A stretch of 50,972 nt of DNA from a virus (IMGVR_UViG_3300044631_002617:1-50972), one strand, 5' to 3'; counted from the stretch's first letter, positions 3,416 to 48,171 are shown. Notes: generated by a model not told the origin, from the sequence alone. Made by a program: numbers and translations.

Positions 3416-4090
3416 ATGCAACTCACGCTTCTCCCCACCAAGCCGTCATGCACGGCGTGCGATCTCCATTCCGCCGCGAAGAACGTCGGCATCCCCTCCC
3501 GCCATCTCCCCACCAGCCTGCCGTCTGACCCCACCAACCCGGTCGTCATCGTCATTGGCATGAACCCCGGCACGCAGGAGGACAGGCAAGGCGAGTGCTG
3601 GATCGGTCCCTCCGGCCAGCTCCTGTCCGGCCCGTACCTCGCTGGCTCCGGCGTCGACAACCTCGCCACCATCTACCTCTGCAACGTGGCCCGATGCGTC
3701 TCGCCCGGTGGCAAGCCCAAGCCCGCGCACTACCGCACCTGTTTCAACAACACCCTGCTTGACATCACCACGATCCTGGACCATCATCACGCCGCGTCCG
3801 CCCGTGCCATCCTCTGCGCCGGCGCTGACCCCGTTACATACCTGAGCCGCACGTGGGGCAAGCGTGCCATGTCCCAGCAAGAAGCGTTCCGCGCACAGGG
3901 CATGGCAATCCCGACCCTCCCGCGCACCCACTTCTTCGCCACCTACCACCCGGCCGCAGTCCTCCGGGAGCCCGGTCTCATCCATCCCGTCGCCGACCAC
4001 ATGGCCTTGCTCGCCAACTTCCTGACCGGCGACCTGGCCCGTCCGTCCGCACCCCTCATCCGCACCCCATTCCTCCCGAGGACCACATGA
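3416..4090 (+). CDS. Uracil-DNA glycosylase superfamily, family-4-like
   Basis: CTAC Fe-S motif, GMNPG-x-QED...IGPSGQLL, NVARC, TYHPAAVLR. Confidence 0.9.
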   Translation: MQLTLLPTKPSCTACDLHSAAKNVGIPSRHLPTSLPSDPTNPVVIVIGMNPGTQEDRQGECWIGPSGQLLSGPYLAGSGVDNLATIYLCNVARCVSPGGKPKPAHYRTCFNNTLLDITTILDHHHAASARAILCAGADPVTYLSRTWGKRAMSQQEAFRAQGMAIPTLPRTHFFATYHPAAVLREPGLIHPVADHMALLANFLTGDLARPSAPLIRTPFLPRTT

Positions 4091-4380
4091 ACCTGAGCCC
4101 CGCCGACCTCTCCACCATGCGCCAAGCCCTCGTCGACCTCCGCACGCAGATCGAGGAGACCGGACCCTGCGATCACCCCGTCAACATCTGCGTGTGCGGA
4201 CTCCGCACCACCTACAAGAACCTCGGCTCCCTCTTCTACCGCATCACCGATGGGCAGGTCGGTTTCGTCCCCGAACCGCAGTTCATCGACCTCGAGCAGA
4301 TGACCCGCAACATCCTCGGCATCAAGCCCGACGCCGACACTGCCAACACCGCCTTCCGCAAGGGAACCATCAATGACTGA
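4087..4380 (+). CDS. Hypothetical protein
   Basis: GAGGA RBS, ATGA overlap, CDHPVNICVC motif. Confidence 0.75.
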   Translation: MNLSPADLSTMRQALVDLRTQIEETGPCDHPVNICVCGLRTTYKNLGSLFYRITDGQVGFVPEPQFIDLEQMTRNILGIKPDADTANTAFRKGTIND

Positions 4381-4609
4381 ACGCGACCACGAATACGAAC
4401 ATCTCCGTCAGCTGGTGGGGTGGACCGTCTCGCACCCTGTCCGCATCAACCACGGCGACGACGACGACGGGATCTACGAACCCTTCTACGGCCTGGTCCT
4501 CACGCATCCGGACAACAAGAAGCACCAACTCCTTGTCACCATCCAGTGCGACCCCGAAGGCAACGGCCCCGGCCACCTCGCCATCGAGAAGGAGAAGTAC
4601 GGCACATGA
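4373..4609 (+). CDS. Hypothetical protein
   Basis: Coupled ORF containing DPEGNGPG. Confidence 0.75.
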   Translation: MTERDHEYEHLRQLVGWTVSHPVRINHGDDDDGIYEPFYGLVLTHPDNKKHQLLVTIQCDPEGNGPGHLAIEKEKYGT

Positions 4610-4785
4610 CCGACCACGAGAAGGACATCGAGAACCTGCGCCTGCAGATCGACATCCTCCGCGCCGAGCGCGACGAGGCGAGGCGTATGTATTGCGGGCG
4701 GGTATCCCGCGATGTGCCGCTTGATGCGTTTGATATTGCGAAGAACCACGGCTGGGATTGCTTCCCGCAGGAGGACGGCAAGTGA
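4606..4785 (+). CDS. Small ERDEARR...GWDCF protein
   Basis: ATGA overlap and GGAG RBS. Confidence 0.75.
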   Translation: MTDHEKDIENLRLQIDILRAERDEARRMYCGRVSRDVPLDAFDIAKNHGWDCFPQEDGK

Positions 4786-5066
4786 GCAAGAAGAAGCCAA
4801 AGACGATTGATGCTTCCTGCCCCGTTACGTTGATGGGGTGCGAAGGAGAAGTGATCGTAGAGATGACTCCGACCGAGGCAGTTTTGATGATCGAAAAGGC
4901 ATGGCAGGAAAACAAGCGACTGCGGCAGGAGAACGCAACCATCACCGCCGAGCGTGACAGGGCAAGGCGTATGTGCTGTTTGTTTCAGTCGCGGCTGCTT
5001 GGATCCGAACCGCTTTGGTGGGCAAAGAAGCAGGAGTGGAATTGCTTTACGGAGGAACAGCCGTGA
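4782..5066 (+). CDS. Small ERDRARR...WNCF protein, paralogue of the previous gene
   Basis: GTGA overlap, GGAGG RBS, shared C-terminal motif. Confidence 0.75.
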   Translation: MSKKKPKTIDASCPVTLMGCEGEVIVEMTPTEAVLMIEKAWQENKRLRQENATITAERDRARRMCCLFQSRLLGSEPLWWAKKQEWNCFTEEQP

Positions 5067-6065: not shown

Positions 6066-8146
6066 CCAGCCCACGCATCATCTCCCTCGACATCGAGACC
6101 TACGGCGCAGCCGCCACCAACGGTCGGGGGCAGATGCTGCCGGCGCAGACAGTCTTTCATCCTGCACGGGCCATCGCCACGGATGGCGTTGCCCGCCAGG
6201 ATCTTGTGCTGACCTGCGCCATCACCGTTGCAGCAACCGAGCCACCCTACGAGGGACCCGCCGACATGTGGGATCTCGAGCGGGTTGCTGCCCTGCAGCC
6301 CGGCCCGACCTTCACCCTCAACCTGACCGACCCCACCAGCCACGACACTCTGCTGGCCTGGCTCCGCCATGCGCACACCATCGTCGGCATGAACCTGCCG
6401 TTCGACATCCTCTGGCTGCGCGCCTACACCCCGGCCCTTGCCCTCGCCCTCAACGGTCGGCACACCCTCATCGACCTGTCCGTCGTCAACTTCCTGCACT
6501 CCGAACTCCGGCCCGAGCGCAGCCTCAAGTCCCTTGGCCCCGTCCTCGGCACCCACTCCTACCGTGACGAAGCCACGCTCAAGGACGGTCGCCGGTTCCC
6601 TTCCCCCACCTGCCCAAACCTCCACGCGTACAACGCGCAGGACACGCACAACACCATGCTCGCCGTCGCACACCTGGCCCGGCGCATCCAGCGTGACTAC
6701 CCCAGCACGGACAAGCTCAGCTCCTACAGCGTCAACCACTTCAGCGACACGCTGTGGTCCACGATCCGCATGAGCGAGGCCGGCATTCCCTTCTCGCTGC
6801 CTGCACTCCGCACCCTCGAGGCCGACCTCATCAAGCAGGCAGACGACGCCACCAACTGCGCCGCTGCTGGTGGGGTACTCATCGAAGGCGAAGGCTCCGT
6901 CCAATCCCAGCGCGAGTTCATGGCCCGGTGCATCGAGGACATCCTCCCCACCAACCCTGACTTCCTGTCCCACCCCCTGCTCACCTACACCGAGAAAGCG
7001 AGGGAACTCTCGTGGTCCAGCGAGAACCGCAGGCTCATCGCGAGCCACCTGCCCGACTCTCACCCAGCCCGCACCATCTTCGAGTGTGCAGACAAACACA
7101 GCACGGCACAGAAGTTGGTGTCTTCCTACACATATCCGCTCTTGCGTCATCGCCGCACCAAGCCGGCCGACAAGTCGTCTGTCCTGCTCCCACTCACGAG
7201 CACGTCAGACATTGGCCTTGCCTACCCAACTTGGTATACAGTTCCCTCCGTACCAAAGGACTCAGGCTCTGAGGGCGGCACGATCCAAGCCCGGATCACC
7301 TGCAAGAACCCGGCGGCCCAGACTTTCCCCGCCGTCATCAAGGACTGCGAGACCAGCCGCTACCCCGGCGGCACCATCGTCTCCTTCGACCTGAGCCAGA
7401 TCGAGCTACGCGTCGCAGCCGTCCTGTCCGGCGAGCCCACCCTGCTCGCCGCCTTCAACGATGGCCTCGACCTGCACACCCAGCGCACCCTCGCCATCTT
7501 CGGGCAAGACGCGAAGGACCGCCCCGACTTCAAGTCCCTCCGTCAGATCGGTAAGACCGTGAACTTCGCCGACCTGTTCGGTGCGTCCGCGGCCCGCCTC
7601 CAGCGCAGCGTTCTCGACATGTCCGGCACCCTCTACCCCCTGTCCTTCTTCGACCAAATCGTTGCCAGCCGATACGCCCAACGACCTGGGCTGGTGGGGT
7701 GGCAGTACGCACTGTGCAAGCAGGCGGAATCAGCCGGCTACATCGAACTGCCGTACACCGGCCACACCCGCACCTTCACCAGCTTCCGGCTGGACGAACG
7801 GGCATGGCGCAGCAAGCGGGAACTGAAGCAGGTCCTCGCCCGTGGTGGCAAGAGCATGATCTCCGAAGTCTGCAACTTCCCGGTGCAGGCAACGGCGGGC
7901 AACGTCATGCTCGCCATCCAGAACTTCATTCACCGTGCGCTGGGTCCCATCACGAACCCCACCAGCCACAGGCAACCGCAGCTGTTCCTCCAGGTCTACG
8001 ACGCCCTGTACTTCGACTGCCCGCCGGGCACCGAGGGTCAGGCAGCGGACCTCATGTGGGCAGCGGTGGAGTTTGTCGGCACCGCCGGTTACTGGCATGA
8101 GTTGTGCAAGCGTTCCGGTCATCACGCACCCCTTATCTACGAGTAG
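6062..8146 (+). CDS. polA: Family A DNA polymerase with 3'-5' exonuclease domain
   Basis: ExoI DIET, ExoII NLPFD, ExoIII YNAQD, motif A DLSQIELR, motif B RQIGKTVNFADLFG, NFPVQATA, motif C QVYDAL. Confidence 0.95.
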   Translation: MTSPRIISLDIETYGAAATNGRGQMLPAQTVFHPARAIATDGVARQDLVLTCAITVAATEPPYEGPADMWDLERVAALQPGPTFTLNLTDPTSHDTLLAWLRHAHTIVGMNLPFDILWLRAYTPALALALNGRHTLIDLSVVNFLHSELRPERSLKSLGPVLGTHSYRDEATLKDGRRFPSPTCPNLHAYNAQDTHNTMLAVAHLARRIQRDYPSTDKLSSYSVNHFSDTLWSTIRMSEAGIPFSLPALRTLEADLIKQADDATNCAAAGGVLIEGEGSVQSQREFMARCIEDILPTNPDFLSHPLLTYTEKARELSWSSENRRLIASHLPDSHPARTIFECADKHSTAQKLVSSYTYPLLRHRRTKPADKSSVLLPLTSTSDIGLAYPTWYTVPSVPKDSGSEGGTIQARITCKNPAAQTFPAVIKDCETSRYPGGTIVSFDLSQIELRVAAVLSGEPTLLAAFNDGLDLHTQRTLAIFGQDAKDRPDFKSLRQIGKTVNFADLFGASAARLQRSVLDMSGTLYPLSFFDQIVASRYAQRPGLVGWQYALCKQAESAGYIELPYTGHTRTFTSFRLDERAWRSKRELKQVLARGGKSMISEVCNFPVQATAGNVMLAIQNFIHRALGPITNPTSHRQPQLFLQVYDALYFDCPPGTEGQAADLMWAAVEFVGTAGYWHELCKRSGHHAPLIYE

Positions 8147-9548: not shown

Positions 9549-10238
9549 GTGTCCCAAGTCACCGTCCTGATTGACGCCCGGGAAAAGAAACCCCTTGCCT
9601 TTCCCGCACACCTCGTGGTGCTGGACAGGAATGCCCTGCCCACCTCCGGTCGGTCCCGCACAGTCACGGTCCGCACGCAGTCTGAGACCATGAAGACTGG
9701 GGACTACCGGTTGGTGGGGGGCAAGGCGGCCATTGAGCGGAAGGGATCCTTCGAGGAGATCGCGGGGAACTGCCTAACCCTCGACGGCAGGCGACGTTTT
9801 ATTGAATGCTGCCGCCGCCTCCGGGACGAGTGCAGCAGGGCGTGCCTCTTGTTCGAGGGCGCAGTGGGGGGCTTCGAGGTTCGGGCTGGACTTCCCCATC
9901 CGGGGGTCGCAACCGACGCTTTATTGGATATCATCGGGGAGCACGGGCTACCGCTCATGCTGCTCCCCCTGAGCACGACCGGCCAACGTAGGGCGGCAGG
10001 GGAATGGGCGCTGAGGTGGCTCCTATCGCAGGAACGCCATGTCATACGTCACGCTCACGACCGACACCAAGAACTACCACAAGTCGACGACCTTCGCAGT
10101 AACGGCGACGGCGGCCCAGGCAAAGTCGGTTGTGACGACGAAGCCCGAGCCGGTGGCGAATCGCAGCACGGTGCTGGGCGCATCGTACAACTACCTCAAG
10201 CTGAAGATCTACTGCAGCGCAAGCACCCCGGTGCCTAG
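9549..10238 (+). CDS. ERCC4/XPF-domain nuclease (probable resolvase)
   Basis: IDARE, GDY and IERK motifs. The C-terminal tail overlaps the next gene. Confidence 0.85.
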   Translation: MSQVTVLIDAREKKPLAFPAHLVVLDRNALPTSGRSRTVTVRTQSETMKTGDYRLVGGKAAIERKGSFEEIAGNCLTLDGRRRFIECCRRLRDECSRACLLFEGAVGGFEVRAGLPHPGVATDALLDIIGEHGLPLMLLPLSTTGQRRAAGEWALRWLLSQERHVIRHAHDRHQELPQVDDLRSNGDGGPGKVGCDDEARAGGESQHGAGRIVQLPQAEDLLQRKHPGA

Positions 10239-10769: not shown

Positions 10770-10771
10770 CC

Positions 10772-11791: not shown

Positions 11792-11803
11792 AGAAAGGCA
11801 ATC

Positions 11804-12430: not shown

Positions 12431-12890
12431 CTTCTGGTTGCTGGTGGGGTGCAGCCCGACCGCACGGGTCGCGCACAACTCCACCCTCATTCAGTCGGAG
12501 GCACAGGCGCTGATTGACAGGGGCGAGGCGACCGGGGACAAGGAGGTCGTGAAGCATGCAGAACGTATTTACGGGCTTGCTTCTGATATCCATGGTCAGC
12601 TACCTTATCTGGAGGACCGAGTGCCATCGTGGCTCACGACGCTGTGGTGGTGCGCGGCAGCCGCAATCGTTATCGGCATCTGCGTTATCCTGTGGCAGAC
12701 CGGAATCGGCACTGCCATCCGAGTCGCCATTGGCTGGCTCCCGCGGAAGAAGGTTGTTGACGCCGACCTTGCTTCGGGCATGCTCGACCCAAACAAACCG
12801 GAAGACGCTCGTGAGTATGTTGCTGCGCGACGGGCGTCCGACCCAGAGTTCGATGCCGCGTGGCGACGCATTCACAAGGAGAAGTCATGA
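12396..12890 (+). CDS. Lipoprotein with C-terminal TM helix (spanin candidate)
   Basis: Signal peptide ending in an LVGC lipobox, plus a second hydrophobic segment. Confidence 0.6.
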   Translation: MRLLPLILLLADFWLLVGCSPTARVAHNSTLIQSEAQALIDRGEATGDKEVVKHAERIYGLASDIHGQLPYLEDRVPSWLTTLWWCAAAAIVIGICVILWQTGIGTAIRVAIGWLPRKKVVDADLASGMLDPNKPEDAREYVAARRASDPEFDAAWRRIHKEKS

Positions 12891-13923: not shown

Positions 13924-13935
13924 ACCCCACCAGCC

Positions 13936-14292: not shown

Positions 14293-15519
14293 ATGCCCCC
14301 ACCAACCCAGGCTGTCCATTACCCCACCAGCGTCGTTGACCCCAACGTCCGTCACTGGCTTGAGGCCCACGGCATCTTTGCCCGCAAGCCCCCCATCCGC
14401 TCGAGCGACTACCGCCTCGTGCGCTCGTGCCCCCGCACCTACTACCTGTCCCGCCGGCTGGGCCTCGTCAAGGCGTTCCAGTACAGCAAGGCCCTGACCC
14501 GCGGCAGCTGGGTCCACCTCGCGTTCGCGTGCATCCTCGATGACCCCACCGACCGGGCGATCACGCTGGAAAACGCCATCGCCGCCCGCTGCGAGGAGCT
14601 GCGGGAAGTGGCCAAGGCGCTTGGCGTGTCGTCCGAGAAGATCCGGGAGATGGTTGCGCGGGAGGAGCAGGACGCCCGCACCAGCATCGCGTGGTTCAAC
14701 GCAGCCCTCCAGATCCCGGACGGCAGTGGCCGCACCCTGGCCCAGCGGTTCGCGCAGGATTGGATCGTGGTCGAGCAGGAGCCCGAGATCCTGCACGGCG
14801 ACCGGCTCATCCAGCCCGACGTCATCGTGCGGGACAAGGTGGGGAAGTTCTGGATCGTGGACTTCAAGACCACGGCCATGTCCACCAACGCCCGCCTCCA
14901 GACCTGCCCGCTGGAGTTCCAGACCCAGCACTACTTCCACACCTACCGCGACAAGTGCGCAGAAGACACCGCGTTCCAGCTCGCGTACTGCATGCCCGAA
15001 GACGTGGGCGGCGTCCTGCACATTGCGATCCGCAAGCCCAGCATCGAGTTCGGACTGAAGGACAGGCCGTTCACCCTCGACGAATCCCCGTTCAAGTCCG
15101 GCCCGCGAAAGGGCGAGCCGCGCAACGAGAAGATCTACACCGGTGAGCCTGACGCGTACCTGTACGAGCAGCGTTGCATCGAGTGGTACATGGGCCGCGG
15201 TGAGTACAGCCACTTCGAGCCTGAGCGGTTGACCGATCCGTGCGTCGCGATTTCCACGACATCCGCTGAACTCCTCACTTGCGCTGACATGCAGGCAGAG
15301 TACAATTCGCGTCTGTCCCTCATCCGGAACTACACGAGCCGCCCGTCGCAACCCAGCGAATTCGAGATCGGTGACCCTGTCGTGCAGCATGGCACGCCGT
15401 CGCCCTATCTCCCGTTCCACATGGTTGAACCCGCGAAGTGGCCCGACCTGATCCGCAGTGAGGGGTTCCTGCAACGCGACAGAGACAACCACACGGAGAT
15501 CGACAATGGATCAGAGTGA
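14293..15519 (+). CDS. PD-(D/E)XK nuclease, Cas4/RecB-like exonuclease
   Basis: CPRTY, GSWVH, E-x-E, PDVIV...IVDFKT, Q...Y motifs. Confidence 0.88.
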   Translation: MPPPTQAVHYPTSVVDPNVRHWLEAHGIFARKPPIRSSDYRLVRSCPRTYYLSRRLGLVKAFQYSKALTRGSWVHLAFACILDDPTDRAITLENAIAARCEELREVAKALGVSSEKIREMVAREEQDARTSIAWFNAALQIPDGSGRTLAQRFAQDWIVVEQEPEILHGDRLIQPDVIVRDKVGKFWIVDFKTTAMSTNARLQTCPLEFQTQHYFHTYRDKCAEDTAFQLAYCMPEDVGGVLHIAIRKPSIEFGLKDRPFTLDESPFKSGPRKGEPRNEKIYTGEPDAYLYEQRCIEWYMGRGEYSHFEPERLTDPCVAISTTSAELLTCADMQAEYNSRLSLIRNYTSRPSQPSEFEIGDPVVQHGTPSPYLPFHMVEPAKWPDLIRSEGFLQRDRDNHTEIDNGSE

Positions 15520-15985
15520 GACCCCCACCAGCCAGGAAGCAGGGCGTTCCGTCCTGGGCCCTGCCATGTGGCAAGAGGTGCTGCGCCTCGTCATCGCCCC
15601 CAAGCTTGCGGTCATCGTGACCCGGCACGGGAACGACATCGAGAACCGGCAGCAGCTGCACCGCAAGTTCTGCGAGGAGTACGGTGTCAAGCCGTCCTAC
15701 TCCACATTCAGCGGGTGGTGCGAGGACCTGGGCATCAGCTTCCGCAAGCGCATCGAAGTCAGCATCCCCGGCTGGAAGGAGATGCCTTCTGTCCAGCCCA
15801 CGTGGTCCGACAAGCCCATGGTCGTGCCCGTGATCCTGCAGGAAGAAGACGCCGAAGCGCCTGTGACGTGGGACAGCCCGCAGACCGAACAGGCGCCCGC
15901 GGCTGACCCGTTCAACATCCCGGAAGTCCTGCCTGGCGGCATGCGCCCCCCGGCGTTCCTGAATCAGTCGGACTTCGCCAACTAA
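15506..15985 (+). CDS. Hypothetical protein, possible N-terminal DNA-binding helices
   Basis: GGAG RBS, overlaps the nuclease stop. Confidence 0.7.
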   Translation: MDQSETPTSQEAGRSVLGPAMWQEVLRLVIAPKLAVIVTRHGNDIENRQQLHRKFCEEYGVKPSYSTFSGWCEDLGISFRKRIEVSIPGWKEMPSVQPTWSDKPMVVPVILQEEDAEAPVTWDSPQTEQAPAADPFNIPEVLPGGMRPPAFLNQSDFAN

Positions 15986-17506: not shown

Positions 17507-17586
17507 GTTCTGCTACACTACCCCGTACCCCACCAGCCGGGGGAGGGTTGCCCGCAAAGCGCCCTCCCCCTCATTGACCCCCGGAT

Positions 17587-18095: not shown

Positions 18096-18528
18096 ACACG
18101 GCCTGTCCGCAGTCATCCAGAAGCACGACGGCGAACCCCTCTCCATCACCGGCCCCTCCCCCTTCGCCGACACGACCGAACCCCTCCCCGCCCACTGCGG
18201 CATCCTCCGCGCACAGACCGGCTGGTGGGGCATAGTCGTACACCGACCCCGCGGCGTACACCCCCAAGAGGCCGTGCAGCACTTTGAGATCGAACCGCAG
18301 CCCATCGTGTGGTGCGGACCCAACGCGACCATCGGCCTGTATCGGCTCCCCACCAACCAGCTCGTGGTCTCCGCCCGGATCCAGGAGTCTGGCGTGATGC
18401 AGATGAAGTCCGTCATCGCAGGCGAGACCGGTCGGGACTACGCGGACAGCCGGTTTGACAAGCGTCGCATCCCCGCAGGCGTGCGCTGGCTGCCCGGCAA
18501 GCAGCTCCAGCTCTGGTTCAGTCTCTAA
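18082..18528 (+). CDS. Hypothetical protein, last gene of the rightward arm
   Basis: Typical codon usage, start uncertain, stop overlaps the converging gene. Confidence 0.65.
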   Translation: MHQSEHGLSAVIQKHDGEPLSITGPSPFADTTEPLPAHCGILRAQTGWWGIVVHRPRGVHPQEAVQHFEIEPQPIVWCGPNATIGLYRLPTNQLVVSARIQESGVMQMKSVIAGETGRDYADSRFDKRRIPAGVRWLPGKQLQLWFSL

Positions 18529-24200: not shown

Positions 24201-24529
24201 TACGCTTCCTCCGTGAACACAATCGCCTGCTCGTGGTCAGGCGATCCAACCTTGCCGACCTTGCCCCACCAGCTGGTGGGGGACTCACGCTCAACGTACA
24301 CCAGAACATCCGGGTCGCGCCAGACGGGATTGTATCGGACTTCCCACAGCCAGCGACGCAGGGTGCGCGGAGTTACCTTGGTGAACTGGCGGTCCAGGCC
24401 CTCGACCGGCACGAACGCACGGTCCCCCACCAACTGGAACCCGTTGCGGGAGTCGGGGGTAGACAGCGCGGTCCCAAACTGGTGGGCCATGTGGGTCAGA
24501 AAGTGACTTGTGCGCTTCCAGTCGATCAC
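24200..24529 (-). CDS. Hypothetical protein
   Basis: Coupled to both neighbours (GTGA, TAATG). Confidence 0.7.
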   Translation of the reverse strand: MIDWKRTSHFLTHMAHQFGTALSTPDSRNGFQLVGDRAFVPVEGLDRQFTKVTPRTLRRWLWEVRYNPVWRDPDVLVYVERESPTSWWGKVGKVGSPDHEQAIVFTEEA

Positions 24530-33928: not shown

Positions 33929-34477
33929 TCACACCGCCTTCGTCATGGCCAGCAGTTCGCTGACGGTTTCCTGGTACTTCTCGCCGCACTCGCTCGGCGC
34001 AGCCCACGCCGTCTGCCCACTCTCCAGCATGTGAGCCGCAGCGTCCATGCCCTTCTGCTTCATGTACTTCACCGCGCTCGCCTTGCTGTGGTCCCGCTCG
34101 GCCTGCATGGACCGCCGGTGACCGGCCGCCTGTCGCATCTTCCGCTTGATCGCCGCAACCGTCTCGTCCACGGGCGTGCAACGGGCCTTCAGGGCATCCC
34201 CCACCAGCCGTCCGGATGCGGGCATGTCAGGCGGGAACGGCATGACCTCCAGCTCCAGCGCAACCGGACTGTCAGTTTGGCTAGGCGGAAAGAGCCACTT
34301 CGCCAGAACCCAGCTCTGGGCGCGCCTGTGGTGGTAGACAAACAGGTCATTGATGCCGGTGAGCTTGCGCGCATACCGGATCCACTCGCCGTCCGGCCAC
34401 ATCTGGTGGTCTTCATTGAACGCGAGGCCAGCGCACGCGGCCTCCCACTTCGGGTCAAACGTGATCTCCATCTCCAT
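33929..34477 (-). CDS. Hypothetical protein
   Basis: GGAGGAG RBS, TAATG coupling. Confidence 0.75.
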   Translation of the reverse strand: MEMEITFDPKWEAACAGLAFNEDHQMWPDGEWIRYARKLTGINDLFVYHHRRAQSWVLAKWLFPPSQTDSPVALELEVMPFPPDMPASGRLVGDALKARCTPVDETVAAIKRKMRQAAGHRRSMQAERDHSKASAVKYMKQKGMDAAAHMLESGQTAWAAPSECGEKYQETVSELLAMTKAV

Positions 34478-34722: not shown

Positions 34723-34895
34723 TTGCCACCCCGGTTCTTGGCCATCTTCTTGAACGTCTTAGCTAGGTTGTAGCGCTTGCTGCCGGGCGGGCACGACGCC
34801 CCGCCGAACTTGCTGCCCGTGCAAACACCCTCGGTGCCACGCCGCTTGATGCTCGCTCGCACCTTGCCGATCCAGTTGGTGGGGTTCTTCGCCAC
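34719..34895 (-). CDS. 58-aa basic protein MAKNPTNWIG...
   Basis: AAAGGAG RBS, GTG start. Confidence 0.7.
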   Translation of the reverse strand: MAKNPTNWIGKVRASIKRRGTEGVCTGSKFGGASCPPGSKRYNLAKTFKKMAKNRGGK

Positions 34896-35600: not shown

Positions 35601-35993
35601 TCAGCTCAGGGTAAGGAGGTAACGGGTCTTCTGGACGGCGCCCAGTGCTTCGTCCCGAAGGTTGAGGAGAGCGGTCTCGTCGTCGCCAACGTCACGAGTG
35701 ATCTCGTCACGGAGGATGCCTTCCAGCTTGGAGAGGATGCTTGCGATGTCCCCACCAACCGACAGCGTGTTGATGCCCGCGAGGACAGAGCGGTCCTGTG
35801 CGCCGATCAGCGTCTCGACGTAGGTGTCGAGGAAGTCCTCAAGGGACTCGTACAGACCCCCGAGAGCCTGGTGCTGCGCGTAGGACTTGGTCATCCAGTG
35901 CTGCAAGTGGAGCGACTGAATGCACTCCATGAGGCGCGCAACGGTGTTCCGGCGCACTTCAGGCTTGGCTGGGGGCTTGATCGGAATTGCCAT
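35601..35993 (-). CDS. Ferritin/Dps-like protein (DUF5856-like)
   Basis: HLQHW.TKSYAQHQALG..YE...D..VE...YLLTL. Confidence 0.8.
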   Translation of the reverse strand: MAIPIKPPAKPEVRRNTVARLMECIQSLHLQHWMTKSYAQHQALGGLYESLEDFLDTYVETLIGAQDRSVLAGINTLSVGGDIASILSKLEGILRDEITRDVGDDETALLNLRDEALGAVQKTRYLLTLS

Positions 35994-37611: not shown

Positions 37612-38508
37612 TCAGACCTTCGTTTCCCCACCAGCCGTCTCGTCGATGGCAAGGCGGGAAAGCGCGTCAACGTTGAAGCTGCGAAGATCCTTCTCGACCT
37701 CGCCGCGGTCAGTGCCCTTCTTGAATTCGGGGGGCGCGACCGGGGCCTTGGCCTTCAGGAACTCGAGCTCGCCTTCCGTTTCCGGCGACCGCCCGAGGGC
37801 ATCAATGTCGCCGATGACCGTGCGATAATTTCCTGCAACAGCCTTCGCCGCCTTCGCGGCTTCGTCCGCAACCCAGTCCTCGCTGAACTGTCCGCCAGCC
37901 GTATCACGACGGGCGTACAGGTTCTTGAGGGTGGCCTCACGGACCTGCTCCTGCAGAGCTCGCCAGGCACCCGCCGCATGATCGCGGCCACGGGTCTTGT
38001 CGAGCGTTTCCAGCATCTTAACGATCTCCGGGTTCCGGTCAATCGAATTCACGACTTCCCGGTCCATTTGCTCCTTCAGCAGACGCAGCCGCAGATCACG
38101 GGTTTCCCGTGCCGCCGCCTCTGCCCGCTCCTCCGCGGCCCGAGTGGTCCGCTTGAGCATCTGTTCGATCTGCGCTTCTTCGCTCACATCTGCCTCCTGG
38201 TCCCCACCAGACTCACCGTCCACGTAGTCCTGCGCGTACTCCCGCGCTTCCTGGTCGCTGAACCCCGCACCGCGCAGCACTTCGTACGCAGCCTGCAGGT
38301 CCGGGGTCTCGCCCTTCATCAGCTTCGTCGCGTTATCCCGGAACTTGTTCAGGTCCTGGACCTGGCTTCGGAGTTGGTTCGCCTCCTGCGACATGCGAAG
38401 GAGTTCTCCGACGGTCACGACCGTACCGTCTTCCATCTCCAGTTCGGTGTCCATGTCGATGCCGTCATCCTGCGGCTCATTGTCGGGGTGGATGCTTGCG
38501 TCAGCCAT
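37612..38508 (-). CDS. Capsid scaffolding protein
   Basis: Acidic N-terminus, VTVGELL motif, coiled coil, lies between portal and capsid. Confidence 0.72.
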   Translation of the reverse strand: MADASIHPDNEPQDDGIDMDTELEMEDGTVVTVGELLRMSQEANQLRSQVQDLNKFRDNATKLMKGETPDLQAAYEVLRGAGFSDQEAREYAQDYVDGESGGDQEADVSEEAQIEQMLKRTTRAAEERAEAAARETRDLRLRLLKEQMDREVVNSIDRNPEIVKMLETLDKTRGRDHAAGAWRALQEQVREATLKNLYARRDTAGGQFSEDWVADEAAKAAKAVAGNYRTVIGDIDALGRSPETEGELEFLKAKAPVAPPEFKKGTDRGEVEKDLRSFNVDALSRLAIDETAGGETKV

Positions 38509-40495
38509 TCATTGCTCCTTGAGGTGGTTGTGCTCCGGGACCGATCCGGCCGGCGACCATGTCAGGGTTGACATTGGCAACGTCGTCCGGGTTCGGGACC
38601 ATCGCGGGAAGGGACTGTCCCATGAACGAGATCAGGGACTCACGGTAGGCCTTGAACGCGTCCTGCACTCCGGGACTCGCCACTGCCATGATCGGGTTGG
38701 ACATGAACGCGCTCAGCACCCTGAGCTGCAGGTCAGGCCGCGCGGTGTGCGGGGTCAGCACGATCTGCTGGGTCTGCTGACCGTCGCCGTACAGCAGCAG
38801 GATGTTGCGGATCACGCACTCGTACGCGCTCTTCTCCTCGTCCATCCACACGGCGAGGTCGATGCCTTCCTTCATGGCAAACAGCTTGACGCCCTCGGGG
38901 TCCGTCAGTCCTGCCTGCAGAAGGCCCATCATCTCCTGCTTCCGCACCGTCTCGCTGCGCGGGCTGGTGTCCCGCACGGTAAACGAGAGCTGGCTGAAGT
39001 TGGGGATTGGGTTCTTCTTGAAGTTGACCGTCCCCTCCTCGGGGTCGATCACCGCACCCGCCAGGTCCAGCGTCAGCTTGTTGACCGGCAGCGCCCGGTC
39101 GCTCATCAGCATCTCGCGGCTCGCCTTCGCCACCAGGCTCTTGTACATGGTGCCGAATGCCATCTGCACACCGCTGGTGGGGTTCGTCATCGCCTTGCTG
39201 ATCTGCTCGTCGAGGAACTGCAGACCGCTTGCGCTGTCCACTCGGCCCTTTTCCGCCAGCAGGTCCTGCACCGGGCTGATGCTGTCCGCAATCGCCTTCG
39301 CGAACTGCGCGACCTTGCCCGGCACGTCACCCGCATTGTGCGGCGTGATGACCATGGGCTTGAAGTCGTCGCCCAGGATCGCGTCCTTGCTGTAGCTGAT
39401 GTACCGCAGGCCCTTGCCGATGTCACGCATCACCGCACGCTCGTTGATCGTGCCCTGCGGCATGACCAGAACGCCGTACTTGTCGATGTCGCGGATGTTG
39501 TTGAACAGGCTCTTCAGCAGCCGTTCCATCTCGCGCACGATGCCGAACATCAGGTCGAACACGCCCGCGCCGTGGAACGTGCCGTTGTCCATGAACCGGG
39601 CCACGCCGAGCGGGCAGTACGTCTCAACCTCGCTCAGGTCACGGTCGTCGAGCGTTACGCCACCGCTGGTCACCACGTACCGGTTGACCGTCCCACGCGG
39701 GCCGTCCATCCACAGCTCGCGGACCTTGACCACTTCCATCTCGTTGCTGCCGGGCACACCGTTCAGCGCGCCGGTGCTTGCGGAGTTCAGGACGTAACCG
39801 TTGCCGGGAGCGTCCGCGGGCTCTTCCATGTCATGCCCGTACTCCCAGCTCCACGCGTCCATCTTCTCCTTGTTCTTCTCAAGGAACGCCTTGCCGAACC
39901 GTTCCTGCAGGAACGTCATCGGCACGATGCGCTGACGGATGATCCCCCGGACTTTCGTGAAGTCGTGGCCCAGGCTCGGGAACGGCAGGATCTCCTTGGG
40001 ATGCACGACCTCCAGGTCGCTCGTCAACCCGATGGTGGGGTGATCGACAATGTGCCCCGTGATGCCCGCGCAGCCAAGCGTGGTGAACAGGTAGTTGAAC
40101 TCCCGCTTCACCTTCTCGAGCTGCTGGTCGCTCACAACCGCATCCGCCACCAGCTGCGCCACGCTCCGCTCGCGGATGCCCGCGAGGCTGAAGCCCTGCC
40201 TCAACGCCTTCGGACGCAGGTCCATCGTGTTGAGGCGCGCCGTCGTCTTGTCGATGATCGAGATCAGCTCGGTGGACTGGAACTCCATGTTCCCGTCCTC
40301 GTCGAGGTAGTACGGCACCACGCGCGTCGTGCGCGGGTCGAAGACGTCGAAGCGCCGGAAGCCGTTCAGGTAGAACCACGCCAGGATCCACAGCGTCCGC
40401 CGATACGTGAGCTTCGTCATCTCACGTTCGCAGTGCTGGTCGATCACCTTTGCCAGCAGGTACTTGTCCTTGGGCAGCGTGTATGAGTCATGCAT
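38501..40495 (-). CDS. Portal protein
   Basis: 664 aa, downstream of terminase, GRVDSASGLQFL, P/Q-rich tail. Confidence 0.8.
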   Translation of the reverse strand: MHDSYTLPKDKYLLAKVIDQHCEREMTKLTYRRTLWILAWFYLNGFRRFDVFDPRTTRVVPYYLDEDGNMEFQSTELISIIDKTTARLNTMDLRPKALRQGFSLAGIRERSVAQLVADAVVSDQQLEKVKREFNYLFTTLGCAGITGHIVDHPTIGLTSDLEVVHPKEILPFPSLGHDFTKVRGIIRQRIVPMTFLQERFGKAFLEKNKEKMDAWSWEYGHDMEEPADAPGNGYVLNSASTGALNGVPGSNEMEVVKVRELWMDGPRGTVNRYVVTSGGVTLDDRDLSEVETYCPLGVARFMDNGTFHGAGVFDLMFGIVREMERLLKSLFNNIRDIDKYGVLVMPQGTINERAVMRDIGKGLRYISYSKDAILGDDFKPMVITPHNAGDVPGKVAQFAKAIADSISPVQDLLAEKGRVDSASGLQFLDEQISKAMTNPTSGVQMAFGTMYKSLVAKASREMLMSDRALPVNKLTLDLAGAVIDPEEGTVNFKKNPIPNFSQLSFTVRDTSPRSETVRKQEMMGLLQAGLTDPEGVKLFAMKEGIDLAVWMDEEKSAYECVIRNILLLYGDGQQTQQIVLTPHTARPDLQLRVLSAFMSNPIMAVASPGVQDAFKAYRESLISFMGQSLPAMVPNPDDVANVNPDMVAGRIGPGAQPPQGAMNG

Positions 40496-40733: not shown

Positions 40734-42654
40734 TTGGCTTTTCCTCCATGCCATTCATCAGGGACTGAACAGACATCCGGTTGAAATCCATCGCTTCGAC
40801 CGCTGCACCCCCACCAGCCAAGGGGTCGCGGACACTTCCGTCCGACAGCATCTGCTCGAAGTCGAGCGTGGTGGGCTGCTCCCCGGGGGCCAACTGGCGG
40901 TCCAACCGGCCCCGGACCACGAACATGCTCATCGCCACCGTGTCCAGGAAGTCGTCGTGCTGGAGGCCGCCGCTCTCCGCGTCCGGGTTGAACTGCTCGA
41001 TCTGGTCGAACAGGAGCCGCCACGGGAGCTGCCCCCTGCGCCAGACGGGGAACTTTATGAGCCCATGCTCGAACCGGTAGTGCAGGGCGTTGATCTTGCT
41101 GGTCTTGTCCAGCGTGCCCACCCGCAGGGGGATGATCCGGGGCGGGGTCTCGCCCGTAACCTCCGCCGCCTTCTGCCGCACCATGCTCTCCATCGCCGCG
41201 TACAGGCCGAACGACTGCCGCACCACCTCGGGGTGAATCGTCGGGCACCCCCACCTGCCGGCCATCGCAAACGACTTCTCGATCAGCGTCTGCTCCCGGC
41301 ACTGCGAGCCCCACGTGTCCAGCACGAACAGGCACGCGTCAACCGGGTCGTACCCCATCAGGGTGCAGACCTTGTAGTCGCTGTCGCTCGTCGCCGTGTA
41401 ACTGGTGTCCACGGTGATGAACATGCGGACCCGCTCCCGGAGGAACTGGGCCAGCGGCATCTTCTCCTCAAGCCCGCTCTTCCCATTCCAGCAAATCACC
41501 GCCTCGCTGCGCTTGGGATCCGTATCTACCAGTGGGTCCGGACTCTCGAGCCACCAGCCGTGGCGGGCCTGGGTAACCTCGCCGAAGTGCAGGTCCTCGG
41601 ACTCGCCCGGCTGGGCCAGGTACTCAGCCAGGTAGTTGTGGCTGCCGATCATCTCCCGGATCTCTTCCAGGCTGACCAGCCCCTTCAACTTGGGGTCCGC
41701 GTCCTTGGCTTTCCGGTCCAGCGGCCACATGCCCGGCCAACAGGACTTCCGCACCCCGTCCTCTTCGTACTCCGCCTTCAGCACCAGACGCGCCCACTGG
41801 TCGAAACGGGGGTCCGTTGCCACCTGACCGTGCGGCCCCGCCTGCGTCATCATCGCGTGCCACGCGTAGTGCCGCCGGCTCACGAACGTGGCCAGCCACC
41901 GCACGCTTGTATCACGCCGTGTCACCATTGGCATGACGACCTTGAACAGCAGCCGCTCCATGTACGACCGCAGCACGCTCATGCTCGTGCTGGCCTTCGG
42001 GTCATACTCCGGGTCATCCAGCGCATACACGCGCGGGCGACCACCGCGCTGACGGCTCTCGGCGCTGATTGCGCGGAACCAGCTGCCGTTGTTCAGGTAC
42101 ATCATCTCCACGCCGAACGACCGCTCACCCCTCTTGGGCGTGATGCGGCCATCAGGGAACTCCGGACCCCAATCGTCGAACAGACGCTGGTTGCCGAGGA
42201 ACTGGGTCTTCAGAACCTGGCTCGTCTGCTCCGCGTTGTCTATGCTGCTCGTCGCGTAGATGAAGGAGTACGCCGGGCGGCTAACCATCTGGAGGAGTGC
42301 CGACTTCCGGAAACAGTTGCTCTTGGCAAAGCCGCGGGGCGCAATCGCCACAGATCGCGGTGCGAGGGCCCACAGCCGGTAGATGGCGAAGTGGCCAAGC
42401 GGCGATTCGATGGGATCATCATCGTAGAAGTAAGGGTTGAACTCCTCTTCCCAATCCGGGTACAGGTAGTACCGGTCGAAGAAGTTGATGCACGCAGCCA
42501 GCGCGTGCGCCCGATCCATGGGATCGCCACCCAGTTGCCACTGCTTGCACGCGTTCACCCGGGCCAGCCTCTGGCCTTCGGGCGTCAGCGTCAGGTAGTC
42601 CGCCGGCAGCGGGTAGAAGTCGTTTCCCTTGCGCTCGATCCGGACAATGCTCAA
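40708..42654 (-). CDS. terL: Terminase large subunit
   Basis: Walker A APRGFAKS, RGGRP..LDDPE, nuclease VDTS...SD and HDDFLD. Start may be 42654 (TTG) or 42678. Confidence 0.93.
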   Translation of the reverse strand: MSIVRIERKGNDFYPLPADYLTLTPEGQRLARVNACKQWQLGGDPMDRAHALAACINFFDRYYLYPDWEEEFNPYFYDDDPIESPLGHFAIYRLWALAPRSVAIAPRGFAKSNCFRKSALLQMVSRPAYSFIYATSSIDNAEQTSQVLKTQFLGNQRLFDDWGPEFPDGRITPKRGERSFGVEMMYLNNGSWFRAISAESRQRGGRPRVYALDDPEYDPKASTSMSVLRSYMERLLFKVVMPMVTRRDTSVRWLATFVSRRHYAWHAMMTQAGPHGQVATDPRFDQWARLVLKAEYEEDGVRKSCWPGMWPLDRKAKDADPKLKGLVSLEEIREMIGSHNYLAEYLAQPGESEDLHFGEVTQARHGWWLESPDPLVDTDPKRSEAVICWNGKSGLEEKMPLAQFLRERVRMFITVDTSYTATSDSDYKVCTLMGYDPVDACLFVLDTWGSQCREQTLIEKSFAMAGRWGCPTIHPEVVRQSFGLYAAMESMVRQKAAEVTGETPPRIIPLRVGTLDKTSKINALHYRFEHGLIKFPVWRRGQLPWRLLFDQIEQFNPDAESGGLQHDDFLDTVAMSMFVVRGRLDRQLAPGEQPTTLDFEQMLSDGSVRDPLAGGGAAVEAMDFNRMSVQSLMNGMEEKPNAKRGSRV

Positions 42655-42989
42655 GTACGCCCCACCAGCCGCACGCAAGCAATGCGGAGGACGGCGACCG
42701 CCAGCATGCGCGGATCCTTCTGGAACCGGGCCAGGTCGTCGCAGACGTCGAACCAGTACTGCGTGACCTTGACCTCGTTGCGGATCATGTCGCCGAACAC
42801 GGGCGGCTCGACCGCACGGTAGATGCTGGGCTCACCGATTCCCAGATCCTGCAGGATGGCCGCGCCAAGGCGGTAGCACTCAATGGGCTCAAGACTCTGA
42901 ATCGTCTCGAACACCTTGAGATGCCGATCCGGAATCTCGAGCGGGGAGGAACTGGGCTGCGAACGGGAGACTGTCTGGGACTTGGACAT
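42651..42989 (-). CDS. Hypothetical protein
   Basis: GGAG RBS, coupled to terL. Confidence 0.65.
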   Translation of the reverse strand: MSKSQTVSRSQPSSSPLEIPDRHLKVFETIQSLEPIECYRLGAAILQDLGIGEPSIYRAVEPPVFGDMIRNEVKVTQYWFDVCDDLARFQKDPRMLAVAVLRIACVRLVGRT

Positions 42990-43308
42990 GGGACTTGCTC
43001 TCCTGAAGTGACTGCACCAACTTGGTGGTCGAACTGATCTTAACCGTCTGGTTGCCTTCCGTGTGCGTGATTTCCGCGTTCTGGCTCCGGATCACCCCGT
43101 TGATCTCCGCCGTCTCCCGCACCACGCCACGCAGCTGCTTCATCGCCGCCATCGCGACCTTCGGGTCCGGGTCCCGGCTGAACCCCACCAACCGCTCCAC
43201 TTCCTCCCGTGCTTCCCAGCCCGTGGACCGCAGGCCCAACGCCACGCCGTCCATGCCAAAGAAAGCGCGGATGCACTCGCTGTTCGGATCCGCACGTTCC
43301 TTCATCAC
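42889..43308 (-). CDS. Terminase small subunit candidate
   Basis: Helical, DPKVAMAAMKQL, upstream of terL. Confidence 0.5.
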   Translation of the reverse strand: MMKERADPNSECIRAFFGMDGVALGLRSTGWEAREEVERLVGFSRDPDPKVAMAAMKQLRGVVRETAEINGVIRSQNAEITHTEGNQTVKISSTTKLVQSLQESKSHVQVPDSLPFAAQFLPARDSGSASQGVRDDSES

Positions 43309-44993: not shown

Positions 44994-45468
44994 TTGCCTG
45001 CTCCTGTTCGCCGGACGGGATCAGTGTAAGCACAAACCGGGTCAGTTCAGCGGCCGCACTCCTGATTGCCGCACGATCCGCTGGTGGGGTCTGCAGCCCG
45101 TGCATTCGCCGTGCGTCGATGATGGACCGCACCACCAGCTTCCAGTTCCTCTGCACCTCCTGCGGATCGACCTTGATGCGGTAGTGGTTGCTGGGCAACG
45201 CAGACCGCTTCAGGTACGAGTTGCTGGCGCAGAAGTCACGGTTTCCGGGGACCGACAGGTTCTTGATGCACACCTGGAACACGGCGGGATCGACGAACCC
45301 CACCTTGCCGAAGTAGATCAAGGGGCAGCAGATGGACCGGCACAGCGAACGGAACGACCGGTTGTTGGTGATTCCGAACGGCCGCAGTTCTCGGATGTAG
45401 TACTCCTCCGACATGAGGCGCACGCCCCTGCCGAAGGAGATCACCCACTGCTCGTCCTGCTTGCTCAA
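44971..45468 (-). CDS. Hypothetical protein
   Basis: TTGA coupling, typical codon usage. Confidence 0.7.
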   Translation of the reverse strand: MSKQDEQWVISFGRGVRLMSEEYYIRELRPFGITNNRSFRSLCRSICCPLIYFGKVGFVDPAVFQVCIKNLSVPGNRDFCASNSYLKRSALPSNHYRIKVDPQEVQRNWKLVVRSIIDARRMHGLQTPPADRAAIRSAAAELTRFVLTLIPSGEQEQANGQADQD

Positions 45469-46676: not shown

Positions 46677-46703
46677 TAGTTTGTGATCCTTCGGCTTCCG
46701 GCG

Positions 46704-46732
46704 TTGAAACGTTCGGGATTCGCGGGCATAAT
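46704..46732 (+). promoter_or_regulatory. Sigma70-like promoter for the helicase gene
   Basis: TTGAAA-17 nt-CATAAT. Confidence 0.6.
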
Positions 46733-46755
46733 TGGTCTTCCAACAAGGAGAGAGT

Positions 46756-48171
46756 ATGACTGACTGGATCCAGAATCCGTTGCAGTCGCTTGAGCCCGTC
46801 AAGGTGGCTCGGCGAATCCTTCACCGCCAGTTTACCGCCCCGGGTGGCATGAGGGGACTGTGGAGGTGGAAGAATGATTGGTGGAGCTGGGAGGGCGGCA
46901 CGTGGCGCGTGCTGGACGAGGAGCGCATCCGTGACCGGGTGTGGCTCGTGCTTGAGGACGCGATGTACGAGCGGCCCACCCAGAACGGGTTGGTGCTGGT
47001 TCGGTACAGCCCGGACAAGCAGAAGGTCGACGGGGTCGTGCGCGCGCTGGAGGCGCTGGTGCGGATTGATGCGGAGGAGGTCCCGCTGTGGCTGGAGGCC
47101 CCGGATGCTCGGTTTCCCGTGGGGGAGACAGTTGCGTTCCGGGATGTTCTGGTCAATGTGAAGACGCTGGAGACCATGGAGCGACCGGCCCGGTGGTTCG
47201 ACACCGCCATCCTGCCCGTTGAGTACAAGCCGGATGCCCCCACCAGCCGATGGCAGCAGGCAGTGAACGAGTGGGGTGACGGGGACCCGGTGTGGGCTGA
47301 GTTGCTGGCGCGGTGGATGGGGTACTGCCTGATGGGCAGCCGCAAGTATGCCCGGTGGATGCTCATGTACGGCAAGATCCGCGGCGGCAAGGGCACGATC
47401 AGCAGCGTGATCCGGAAGTTGGTCGGGCGGGATGCGTTCATGGGCGCGAGCCTGGAGGATCTGGCCGGCGGTTTCGGCATGGACGGGCTCGAGCGCACGA
47501 AGGTGCTGAGCATCAACGAGGTGAGTGAGCTGGATGGGAAGAGTGGCGAGCGGGTGTGTCGGGTGGTCAAGAACATCGTGGGCAGGGATCCGATGACCGT
47601 GGATGCGAAGTACATGCGGCAGCAGCGGAACGTGATCGTGAACGCGGCGGTCATCATGCAGAGCAACGAGATCCCGGTGCTGCCCAACAAGGGCAGGGGT
47701 TTGAGCGGAAAGATGTTGGTTCTGCCGTTCGAGGTGAGCTTTGAGGGCAGGGAGGACCTGGACCTGGAGGGCGAGCTGGAGCGTGAGCTGGCGGGAATCG
47801 CGGCGTGGGCTGTTGCGGGAGCGAATCGGTTGGAGAACAGCCGGGCGGCGGAGAGGTGGCCGGTTCCGAAGGCTGGCGAGCGGGCGGTTCACATGTACCA
47901 CCTGCAGAACAACCCGTTCGATTCGTTCCTTGAGGCACGGTTCGTGAGGAGGAAGGAAGGGTTCGTGAGCAACGTGATGATCAGGAGCCAGTGGGAGGCG
48001 TGGACCAAGGCCAACAAGATCCGGATGCACGTGGCGAACAACATGCTGCCGATGAAGTTGGTGCAGGGGAGCAGCTGGGACCTGCGGCAGGTGAGGCTTG
48101 CGGAAAGTCAGGGCCACGAGAGGGGAATTGCTGGGATGAGCCTCCGGAAGGAGTACGATGATGAGCACTAG
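46756..48171 (+). CDS. D5/P4-type superfamily 3 helicase without a primase domain
   Basis: AAGGAG RBS, Walker A GKIRGGKGT, Walker B LSINE, motif C SNEIP. Confidence 0.88.
   Translation: MTDWIQNPLQSLEPVKVARRILHRQFTAPGGMRGLWRWKNDWWSWEGGTWRVLDEERIRDRVWLVLEDAMYERPTQNGLVLVRYSPDKQKVDGVVRALEALVRIDAEEVPLWLEAPDARFPVGETVAFRDVLVNVKTLETMERPARWFDTAILPVEYKPDAPTSRWQQAVNEWGDGDPVWAELLARWMGYCLMGSRKYARWMLMYGKIRGGKGTISSVIRKLVGRDAFMGASLEDLAGGFGMDGLERTKVLSINEVSELDGKSGERVCRVVKNIVGRDPMTVDAKYMRQQRNVIVNAAVIMQSNEIPVLPNKGRGLSGKMLVLPFEVSFEGREDLDLEGELERELAGIAAWAVAGANRLENSRAAERWPVPKAGERAVHMYHLQNNPFDSFLEARFVRRKEGFVSNVMIRSQWEAWTKANKIRMHVANNMLPMKLVQGSSWDLRQVRLAESQGHERGIAGMSLRKEYDDEH

Follow-up and report, generated by a model that had tools for sequence, protein, structure and literature searches.

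A G-rich ten-base word selected across reading frames and strands in an uncultured freshwater phage family: a possible Chi-type signal

The genome and the word

The virus record IMGVR_UViG_3300044631_002617, which was analysed over its whole length of 50,972 bases and is called here the window (completeness estimate 100%, GC content 62.4%), repeats through its genes the 10-mer GCTGGTGGGG (reverse complement CCCCACCAGC) in 35 copies, 15 on the + strand and 20 on the - strand. A variant of this word, GTTGGTGGGG, is present in 14 copies (4 on + and 10 on -), and the two forms together, GYTGGTGGGG, make 49 sites, against a mean of 0.52 (standard deviation 0.77, maximum 3) in 100 shuffles that preserved the dinucleotides; an order-3 Markov model expects 0.5 copies of the first form and 0.3 of the second. 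On average, a 10-mer site is met every 1.04 kb and a TGGTGGG every 0.7 kb, and the 10-mer reaches 687 copies per Mb. The sites are evenly spread over ten genome bins, and their spacing is not different from random (coefficient of variation 0.85 against 0.97 ± 0.13). Searching the full-text literature with the 10-mer returned, among the matches listed, only primer-type ones, and none relevant in combination with RecBCD and Chi.

An exact overlap of 127 bases joins the ends of the window (1-127 and 50846-50972), leaving a unique length of 50,845 bases. This overlap has the size of an assembler k-mer, and the annotated 'direct terminal repeat' is probably the end overlap of a genome that is circular in the assembly, either permuted or with true repeats that the assembly did not resolve. 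Genes were called by our own codon-likelihood script and then curated, giving 72 genes and 93% coding sequence; the gene starts are approximate, which leaves the frames of the word unaffected, apart from site 3380, whose status as intergenic or coding is set by the start of the UDG-superfamily gene. Annotation by Pfam and PHROGs placed in the rightward arm this UDG-superfamily protein, PolA, an ERCC4-like open reading frame (ORF), two exonucleases, one of the PD-(D/E)XK family and the second of repair type, and a Sak4-like protein, while a second rightward block contains a D5-like primase/helicase. The leftward structural arm encodes TerL, an SU10-type adaptor and a capsid protein, which the protein Atlas groups with SU10-like capsids and matches to viruses only, without a host; the labels 'portal' and 'scaffold' are based on gene position only. 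Most early genes belong to no family known to Pfam or PHROGs, and a relaxed Pfam search (E up to 0.05) of the 33 unknown proteins of the window gave no convincing match. By its gene content the genome appears to be of a lytic-looking podovirus type, with SU10-like capsid and adaptor.

Isolate relatives of the window were searched for by megablast, which found none close, by tblastn with TerL, which gave one record at 20.7% identity, and with PolA, for which the best identity was 23-25%. On the other hand, a TerL search of IMG/VR gave 55 related loci, with TerL identities of 67-91% and GC contents of 50-66%, from which five near-complete relatives (G526-G530) were fetched; the comparisons of six genomes reported below refer to these and the window. 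The sequencing runs containing the window (20 rows, 13 studies) were all from lake, freshwater or wetland metagenomes, none from an isolate.

Selection on the word within genes and among relatives

As listed in Table 1, 42 of the 49 sites are genic and 7 intergenic. The genic sites use five of the six possible frames, encoding xPT[S/N] 19 times, xLVG 11 times, [A/V]GG 7 times, PP[A/T] 3 times and WWG twice, and never the sixth (PHQ). The initial annotation of this DNA had proposed at least five reading-frame contexts, and every site and peptide named in it, from 3508 to 47247, was found again with our own gene calls (four-residue contexts are given in the table): P-T-S at 3508, 6331, 7957, 14322, 39173 and 47238, L-V-G at 7690, at 12440 and four times in the 906-aa gene (27775, 28273, 29158 and 30328), A-G-G at 6866, 37626 and 40809, W-W-G at 18221 and 24264, and P-P-A at 45080. 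In the orientation of the mRNA, 20 genic sites are G-rich and 22 C-rich, which agrees with the proposed independence from the direction of transcription. The word had also been said to force GTG, GGG and GGT codons into the rightward arm; this is the case for GGG and GGT, which are minor codons (17% and 20%), but not for GTG, which is the commonest valine codon (43%). GCT is likewise minor, with 17% of the codons of its amino acid.

Synonymous codons were permuted within each gene, preserving every protein and the codon usage of each gene, and this left 4.9 ± 1.8 sites (maximum 11 in 1000 permutations) against the 42 observed. Moreover, the tripeptides that can carry the word were examined for their codons, a comparison proposed in the initial annotation: PTS was motif-coded in 13 of 15 occurrences (0.53 expected from codon usage), PTN in 6 of 6 (0.57), LVG in 11 of 16 (0.30), AGG in 4 of 11 (0.04) and VGG in 3 of 11 (0.03). 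This usage is far above the expectation from codon usage, so that the claim withstood the attempt to refute it. Peptide content is also bent: PT[SN] was found 21 times against 6.6 ± 2.5 in residue shuffles and LVG 16 times against 6.2 ± 2.5, while the same shuffles revealed no enrichment of [AV]GG (22 against 17.0) or PP[AT] (8 against 9.2). Thus, from the surplus of sites over the permutations and the motif codons of PTS and PTN, selection acts on the DNA word and not on a peptide, as had been suggested, and it does so across frames and strands and throughout the phage family.

Most high-GC loci among the 55 related ones also have this word as their most frequent 10-mer, and the related loci pooled with the window hold 337 sites over 648 kb. 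The 8-mers CCCCACCA and CCCACCAG are the most over-represented in each of the six genomes and stand with CCACCAGC at the top of the 8-mer lists, and TGGTGGG occurs 72, 59, 56, 54, 52 and 51 times per about 50 kb, at GC contents of 50-62%. Only the high-GC members show a strong flanking G at -2 and a strong last G, so that the core common to the family is YTGGTGGG. In the aligned relatives, 155 of 244 motif sites were intact, against 4-28% of random 10-mers in the same alignments, so that motif sites are retained about three times better than random 10-mers; where nucleotide identity was about 80%, the core sites retained numbered 28 of 44 and 30 of 43. The cores at 39173 and 12440 were intact in every one of the five full-length relatives, and four of the five retained those at 37626 and 17528. 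The sites also turn over, as the relatives carry others that are absent from the window.

The G-rich form favours the TerL-sense strand, with 42:21 in the window and 162:75 over the six genomes. This absolute bias of about 2:1 does not track gene direction and is even over the two oppositely transcribed arms. With the motif masked, the GC skew of the TerL-sense strand is +0.05 to +0.08 in both arms of the six genomes. As an observation in its own right, a skew of one sign over both arms suggests that replication proceeds in one direction genome-wide.

Among 13 close pairs of sites, 10 show the order C-rich then G-rich, and the opposite inverted order was never found. Six of these ten pairs are one orthologous hairpin, which in the window lies at 319-356, directly upstream of the ribosome-binding site of gene 380-988, and which recurs with identical spacing in the relatives L020, L022, L026, L027, L028 and L063; outside this hairpin no preferred spacing between sites was found. 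The pair 49658/49676 forms a terminator-like hairpin right after the stop codon at 49649. A further copy, at 17528, lies directly 5' of a strong GC hairpin, GGGGGAGGG...CCCTCCCCC (window 17495-17585), which resembles a terminator placed between the genes 16985-17506 and 17652-18095. Hairpins with arms CCCCACCARC ... GYTGGTGGGG were also seen in 31 IMG/VR contigs unrelated to the phage family (L415-L448), many of which have a T-run after the hairpin, as ordinary terminators do, and their flanks are not word-rich.

Table 1. Sites of the word and of its variant along the window, with the conserved hairpin; signs in brackets give the strand of the gene
Feature	Position	Strand	Context
GCTGGTGGGG	321..330	-	intergenic; left arm of conserved hairpin 319-356
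GCTGGTGGGG	345..354	+	intergenic; right arm of conserved hairpin 319-356
hairpin	319..356		TCCCCCACCAGC-N14-GCTGGTGGGGGA, 12-bp stem, two inverted motif copies
GTTGGTGGGG	792..801	-	gene 380-988 (+), TPPT
GTTGGTGGGG	1380..1389	-	gene 1372-2148 (+), SPTN
GCTGGTGGGG	3380..3389	+	just 5' of UDG start 3416; within ORF if start is 3302
GCTGGTGGGG	3508..3517	-	UDG-superfamily gene, LPTS
GTTGGTGGGG	3529..3538	-	UDG-superfamily gene, DPTN
GCTGGTGGGG	4411..4420	+	gene 4373-4609, QLVG
GCTGGTGGGG	6331..6340	-	PolA, DPTS
GCTGGTGGGG	6866..6875	+	PolA, AGGV
GTTGGTGGGG	6946..6955	-	PolA, LPTN
GCTGGTGGGG	7690..7699	+	PolA, GLVG
GCTGGTGGGG	7957..7966	-	PolA, NPTS
GTTGGTGGGG	9710..9719	+	ERCC4-like ORF 9549-10238, RLVG
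GCTGGTGGGG	12440..12449	+	gene 12396-12890, LLVG; core in 5/5 full-length relatives
GCTGGTGGGG	13925..13934	-	between stop 13923 and start 13936
GTTGGTGGGG	14297..14306	-	PD-(D/E)XK nuclease gene, PPPT
GCTGGTGGGG	14322..14331	-	PD-(D/E)XK nuclease gene, YPTS
GCTGGTGGGG	15523..15532	-	gene 15506-15985, TPTS
GCTGGTGGGG	17528..17537	-	intergenic, beside terminator-like hairpin; 4/5 full-length relatives (fifth unaligned)
GCTGGTGGGG	18221..18230	+	gene 18082-18528, GWWG
GTTGGTGGGG	18348..18357	-	gene 18082-18528, LPTN
GCTGGTGGGG	18918..18927	+	1250-aa gene (-), YPTS
GCTGGTGGGG	20772..20781	+	1250-aa gene (-), APTS
GCTGGTGGGG	23942..23951	-	gene 23718-24056 (-), AGGG
GCTGGTGGGG	24264..24273	-	gene 24200-24529 (-), SWWG; overlaps site 24272 as 18-base palindrome
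GCTGGTGGGG	24272..24281	+	gene 24200-24529 (-), SPTS
GTTGGTGGGG	24425..24434	-	gene 24200-24529 (-), QLVG
GCTGGTGGGG	27775..27784	-	906-aa gene (-), RLVG
GTTGGTGGGG	27919..27928	+	906-aa gene (-), YPTN
GCTGGTGGGG	28273..28282	-	906-aa gene (-), RLVG
GCTGGTGGGG	29158..29167	-	906-aa gene (-), MLVG
GCTGGTGGGG	29833..29842	+	906-aa gene (-), GPTS
GCTGGTGGGG	30328..30337	-	906-aa gene (-), ELVG
GCTGGTGGGG	31344..31353	+	ORF 30786-32447 (-), TPTS
GTTGGTGGGG	31469..31478	-	ORF 30786-32447 (-), VGGG
GCTGGTGGGG	33349..33358	+	SU10-adaptor-like gene (-), LPTS
GCTGGTGGGG	34199..34208	-	gene 33929-34477 (-), RLVG
GTTGGTGGGG	34875..34884	+	gene 34719-34895 (-), NPTN
GTTGGTGGGG	35750..35759	-	DUF5856 gene (-), VGGD
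GCTGGTGGGG	37626..37635	-	gene 37612-38508 (-; scaffold by position only), AGGE; kept in 22/30 aligned relatives
GCTGGTGGGG	39173..39182	+	664-aa gene 38501-40495 (-; portal by position only), NPTS; kept in 36/47 aligned relatives
GCTGGTGGGG	40809..40818	-	TerL (-), AGGG; kept in 24/37 aligned relatives
GCTGGTGGGG	42660..42669	-	gene 42651-42989 (-), RLVG; kept in 20/23 aligned relatives
GTTGGTGGGG	43183..43192	-	ORF 42889-43308 (-), VGGV
GCTGGTGGGG	45080..45089	+	gene 44971-45468 (-), TPPA
GCTGGTGGGG	47238..47247	-	D5-like primase/helicase gene (+), APTS
GCTGGTGGGG	49658..49667	-	intergenic; left arm, terminator-like hairpin after stop 49649
GTTGGTGGGG	49676..49685	+	intergenic; right arm of hairpin with 49658

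Two segments of the window are poor in the word. The first, 10001-12500, is a low-GC island (57.3% against about 63%) with a single core site; it carries a tail-fibre-like protein with an Mtd_N domain (10772-11791), oddly placed within the replication arm, and an ORF on the opposite strand (10260-10838), no reverse transcriptase being seen there, and it may represent a module gained recently, into which the word has yet to spread. The second, 25001-27500, within the tail genes 24526-27257, has a normal GC content and no TGGTGGG over 2.5 kb, against 1-7 in the other bins.

Candidate readers of the word

Chi, with its E. coli octamer GCTGGTGG lying within the 10-mer, is a closer known analogue than the uptake sequences and HIP1, with which the word had been compared in the initial annotation. 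Our preferred reading, which we hold tentatively and with less than even confidence, is that (G)YTGGTGGG(G) is a Chi-type regulatory signal for a RecBCD-class enzyme of a freshwater host; the reader of the word, the identity of the host and its enzyme equipment are what we infer. The exact Chi octamer has 39 copies in the window against 8.3 expected by the order-3 model, the family core YTGGTGGG matches it at 7 of 8 bases, and the chance of meeting it on either strand of a random 10-mer is, by our own arithmetic, about 1e-4. The word is short, asymmetric, G-rich and related to known Chi sequences. Like the bacterial Chi of E. coli, Haemophilus (GNTGGTGG) and P. syringae, it has the core CTGGTGG, and its favoured coding frame is G-CTG-GTG-G. 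At position 2 the word accepts either C or T, and it is at this position that the Haemophilus sequence is degenerate. Copy number is moreover stable while base composition varies (51-72 TGGTGGG at GC contents of 50-62%), which we counted in favour of a Chi-type role.

Phages rich in Chi offer the nearest precedent. According to PMC12315714, Chi is the commonest octamer in the E. coli phages LLS (23 sites, or one per 1.86 kb) and P1 (50 sites) and in the Pseudomonas phage MD8 (32 copies of GCTGGCGC, the P. syringae form), its density there is well above that of the host's own genome, and such phages are argued to exploit RecBCD for recombination-dependent growth. The word described here resembles theirs, in that it is short, asymmetric and rich in G and provides the most frequent octamer of the genome, far above expectation, with near-variants also common; its density is higher, at one 10-mer per 1.04 kb compared with a site every 1.9 kb for LLS and P1. 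Given how far the Chi density of the known phages exceeds that of their hosts, a host not saturated with the word is to be expected.

Under a Chi-type role, the word would be read on unwound single-stranded DNA by a host helicase-nuclease of RecBCD class (or AddAB class), which would enter at any free double-strand end, whether of injected DNA, a terminase cut, a rolling-circle tail or a broken fork. Encountered in the correct orientation, the word would make the enzyme stop destroying the DNA and load RecA. With a site about every kb on each strand, degradation from any end would be halted after one or two kb, and the rescued ends would become recombination substrates for the formation of circles or concatemers; a side benefit might be less degraded DNA to feed adaptation by clustered regularly interspaced short palindromic repeats (CRISPR). 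The self-closing assembly is compatible with a circularly permuted genome that has ends anywhere, for which uniform coverage of both strands would be favoured.

Several points weigh against this proposal. Neither the isolate and prophage searches nor the source metagenomes yielded a host, and with it a RecBCD or AddAB enzyme to which the word could be linked. In the Chi-rich phages described so far, the sites are strongly co-oriented and clustered at the ends, whereas here they lie uniformly on both strands with only the 162:75 bias. This bias could itself be explained by GC skew alone: the word has six more G than C, and ((1+s)/(1-s))^6 is about 2.3 at s = 0.07, so that a directional function is not required. 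High Chi density in lambdoid phages accompanies the absence of a recombination module (PMC12315714), while the phage studied here, of podovirus type and not lambdoid, has recombination genes of its own, encoding the PD-(D/E)XK exonuclease, the repair-type exonuclease and the Sak4-like protein. The emphasis of the word, unlike that of bacterial Chi, is shifted 3'-ward of the Chi octamer (YTGGTGGG, plus G), and its strongest part, TGGTGGGG with 63 copies, is not that octamer. The word equals none of the five proteobacterial Chi variants given in PMC8022716, according to which, outside the enterics, Chi is known or predicted for few proteobacteria. Finally, three IMG/VR pattern scans found no unrelated word-rich phage, although they were insensitive, recovering 0-3 members of the word's own family; what they matched was either repeats, tandem or glycine-rich, or terminator hairpins of the ordinary kind. 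All ten whole IMG/VR records that were followed up (5 + 5) stayed at or below about 0.35 core sites per kb, where the family has at least 1 per kb. As a separate observation, G534, the record behind L262, classed as a provirus and unrelated to the phage family (weak tblastx matches only), has 12 of 13 copies of TGGTGGGG on the same strand, and 11 of these lie in a stretch of some 10 kb, at about 24-34 kb.

Alternatively, the word could be read by a protein encoded by the phage family itself, which we regard as a serious, though less probable, rival. Its possible uses would include a genome-wide signature of 'self', the loading of a replication protein or of the primase-helicase, condensation or packaging of the DNA, protection of the phage DNA from a phage nuclease directed at that of the host, and a target for a DNA-modifying enzyme of the phage. 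Such a reader fits the enrichment, which was met only in this family, with the reservation that the low sensitivity of the scans for unrelated word-rich phages gives this argument little weight. It also fits the maintenance of the word and its copy number among relatives of 50-62% GC, which probably infect different hosts, and the uniform distribution over the two strands, as would be expected of a binding site on duplex DNA. Most early genes are of no known family, and it is by an early gene, at a single intergenic position, that a perfect inverted pair with a fixed spacing of 14 bases is conserved; beyond that hairpin the sites have no preferred spacing. Against such a reader, no candidate sequence-specific protein, methyltransferase or nicking enzyme was found among the 33 unknown proteins at Pfam E values up to 0.05, and the identity with the Chi octamer would be left as a coincidence of the probability given above. 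A model is provided by the stoperators of cluster A mycobacteriophages, which are asymmetric, dispersed in tens of copies and recognised by a protein of the phage. Stoperators lie between genes and follow the direction of transcription, whereas 42 of the 49 sites considered here are genic and oriented 20:22. The more specific proposal of a virus-encoded 'self' mark, placed about once per kb through every gene and read by a phage protein for discrimination between self and host DNA, for replication or for packaging, is in our judgement slightly less probable still; it would be the viral counterpart of Chi, of the FtsK-orienting polar sequences (KOPS) or of uptake sequences.

A signature of the host genome, reaching the phage by amelioration, recombination or a shared molecular drive, is very improbable. 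Its models are the DNA uptake sequences (DUS) of Neisseriaceae and the uptake signal sequences (USS) of Pasteurellaceae, which are features of bacterial chromosomes kept by uptake bias, with about one copy per kb on both strands and in several frames, an effect on peptides, and inverted pairs serving as terminator-like hairpins, and HIP1 of cyanobacteria, GCGATCGC, a palindromic and hyper-abundant short word that runs through different reading frames. The likeness drawn in the initial annotation holds for behaviour, as the word is found about once per kb, on both strands, in many frames, with altered peptide content and with inverted pairs as terminator-like hairpins at gene ends (49658/49676 and 321/345). 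As for a bacterial carrier, no genome was saturated with the word among the 673 sampled, one per species, from three groups, where the maxima of the 10-mer were about 30 per Mb in 401 Pseudomonadota species, about 59 in 121 genomes of the Cyanobiaceae family and about 39 in 151 Actinomycetota, against the 687 of the phage. A paired-motif scan of the genomes of 185,579 species (one per species) gave scattered single matches among the matches listed, and no prophage relative was found in that collection. Unlike HIP1, GCTGGTGGGG is not its own reverse complement, and GCGATCGC itself has no copy in the window and 0-3 copies in the six phage genomes.

Cyanobiaceae were considered as hosts and rejected. 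In this family the raw counts of the word were 5-10 times those of a reversed-word control, but in 400 kb of one of its genomes (G092:C1:1-400000, L184-L203) the 10-mer occurred 18 times against an order-3 expectation of 15.2. HIP1 is abundant in that genome, and a Shine-Dalgarno-like motif was found upstream of 45 of the 72 genes of the phage (about 63%, against a background of 12%), a figure inflated by a choice of start codons that favours such motifs. High use of Shine-Dalgarno sequences argues against a picocyanobacterial host, and the absence of HIP1 from the phage likewise points away from Cyanobiaceae. Within the same 400 kb, GGCGATCGCC, which is HIP1-type, was seen 64 times against 17.4 expected, words around CAGGGCCAGG and TGCGCA were also among the most over-represented, and GCTGGTGG already reached 0.62 per kb from codon usage alone. 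Among Pseudomonadota the genome with the best ratio, G379, showed a mixed orientation of the word within contigs. In a complete genome, G522, the 10-mer is mostly on + over the first 2.3 Mb or so and mostly on - beyond; a strand switch of this kind would be expected of a Chi-type word, so that the method could detect such a pattern. As a separate observation, several 6-base palindromes are strongly depleted in the window, with observed against expected counts of 0/8.9 for TTCGAA, 1/13.3 for ATCGAT, 4/16.3 for CGATCG, 9/31.8 for TGCGCA and 4/13.2 for GTGCAC; the pattern is suggestive of restriction avoidance and could be of use in narrowing the range of possible hosts.

The last explanation, that the excess is a by-product, without function as a word, of codon usage, favoured peptides or mutational bias, is scarcely credible: the commonest frames do end their third positions in C or G, as the codon bias of the genome does, and the strand bias matches the GC skew, but this reading is already contradicted by the synonymous shuffles, by the tripeptide codons, where minor codons are used as the word needs them (GCT-GGT-GGG in AGG), by the Markov counts, by the threefold better conservation and by the 7 of 49 sites that are intergenic in a genome only 7% non-coding.

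Implications for the phage family and its host

If the word is a Chi-type signal, it would be the densest case so far, non-polar, and from an uncultured freshwater family distinct from the lambdoid and P1 phages, and the phage would reveal the Chi sequence of an uncharacterised freshwater host, for which a polar YTGGTGGG enriched in core genes would be a handle. In that case the strategy of using RecBCD rather than blocking it could coexist with a recombination module of the phage. Should the reader be a phage protein, the word would represent a new kind of genome-wide viral signature. Under either reading, the phage family is a clear example of a non-coding constraint that rewrites the codons chosen by a virus and even alters its peptide content.

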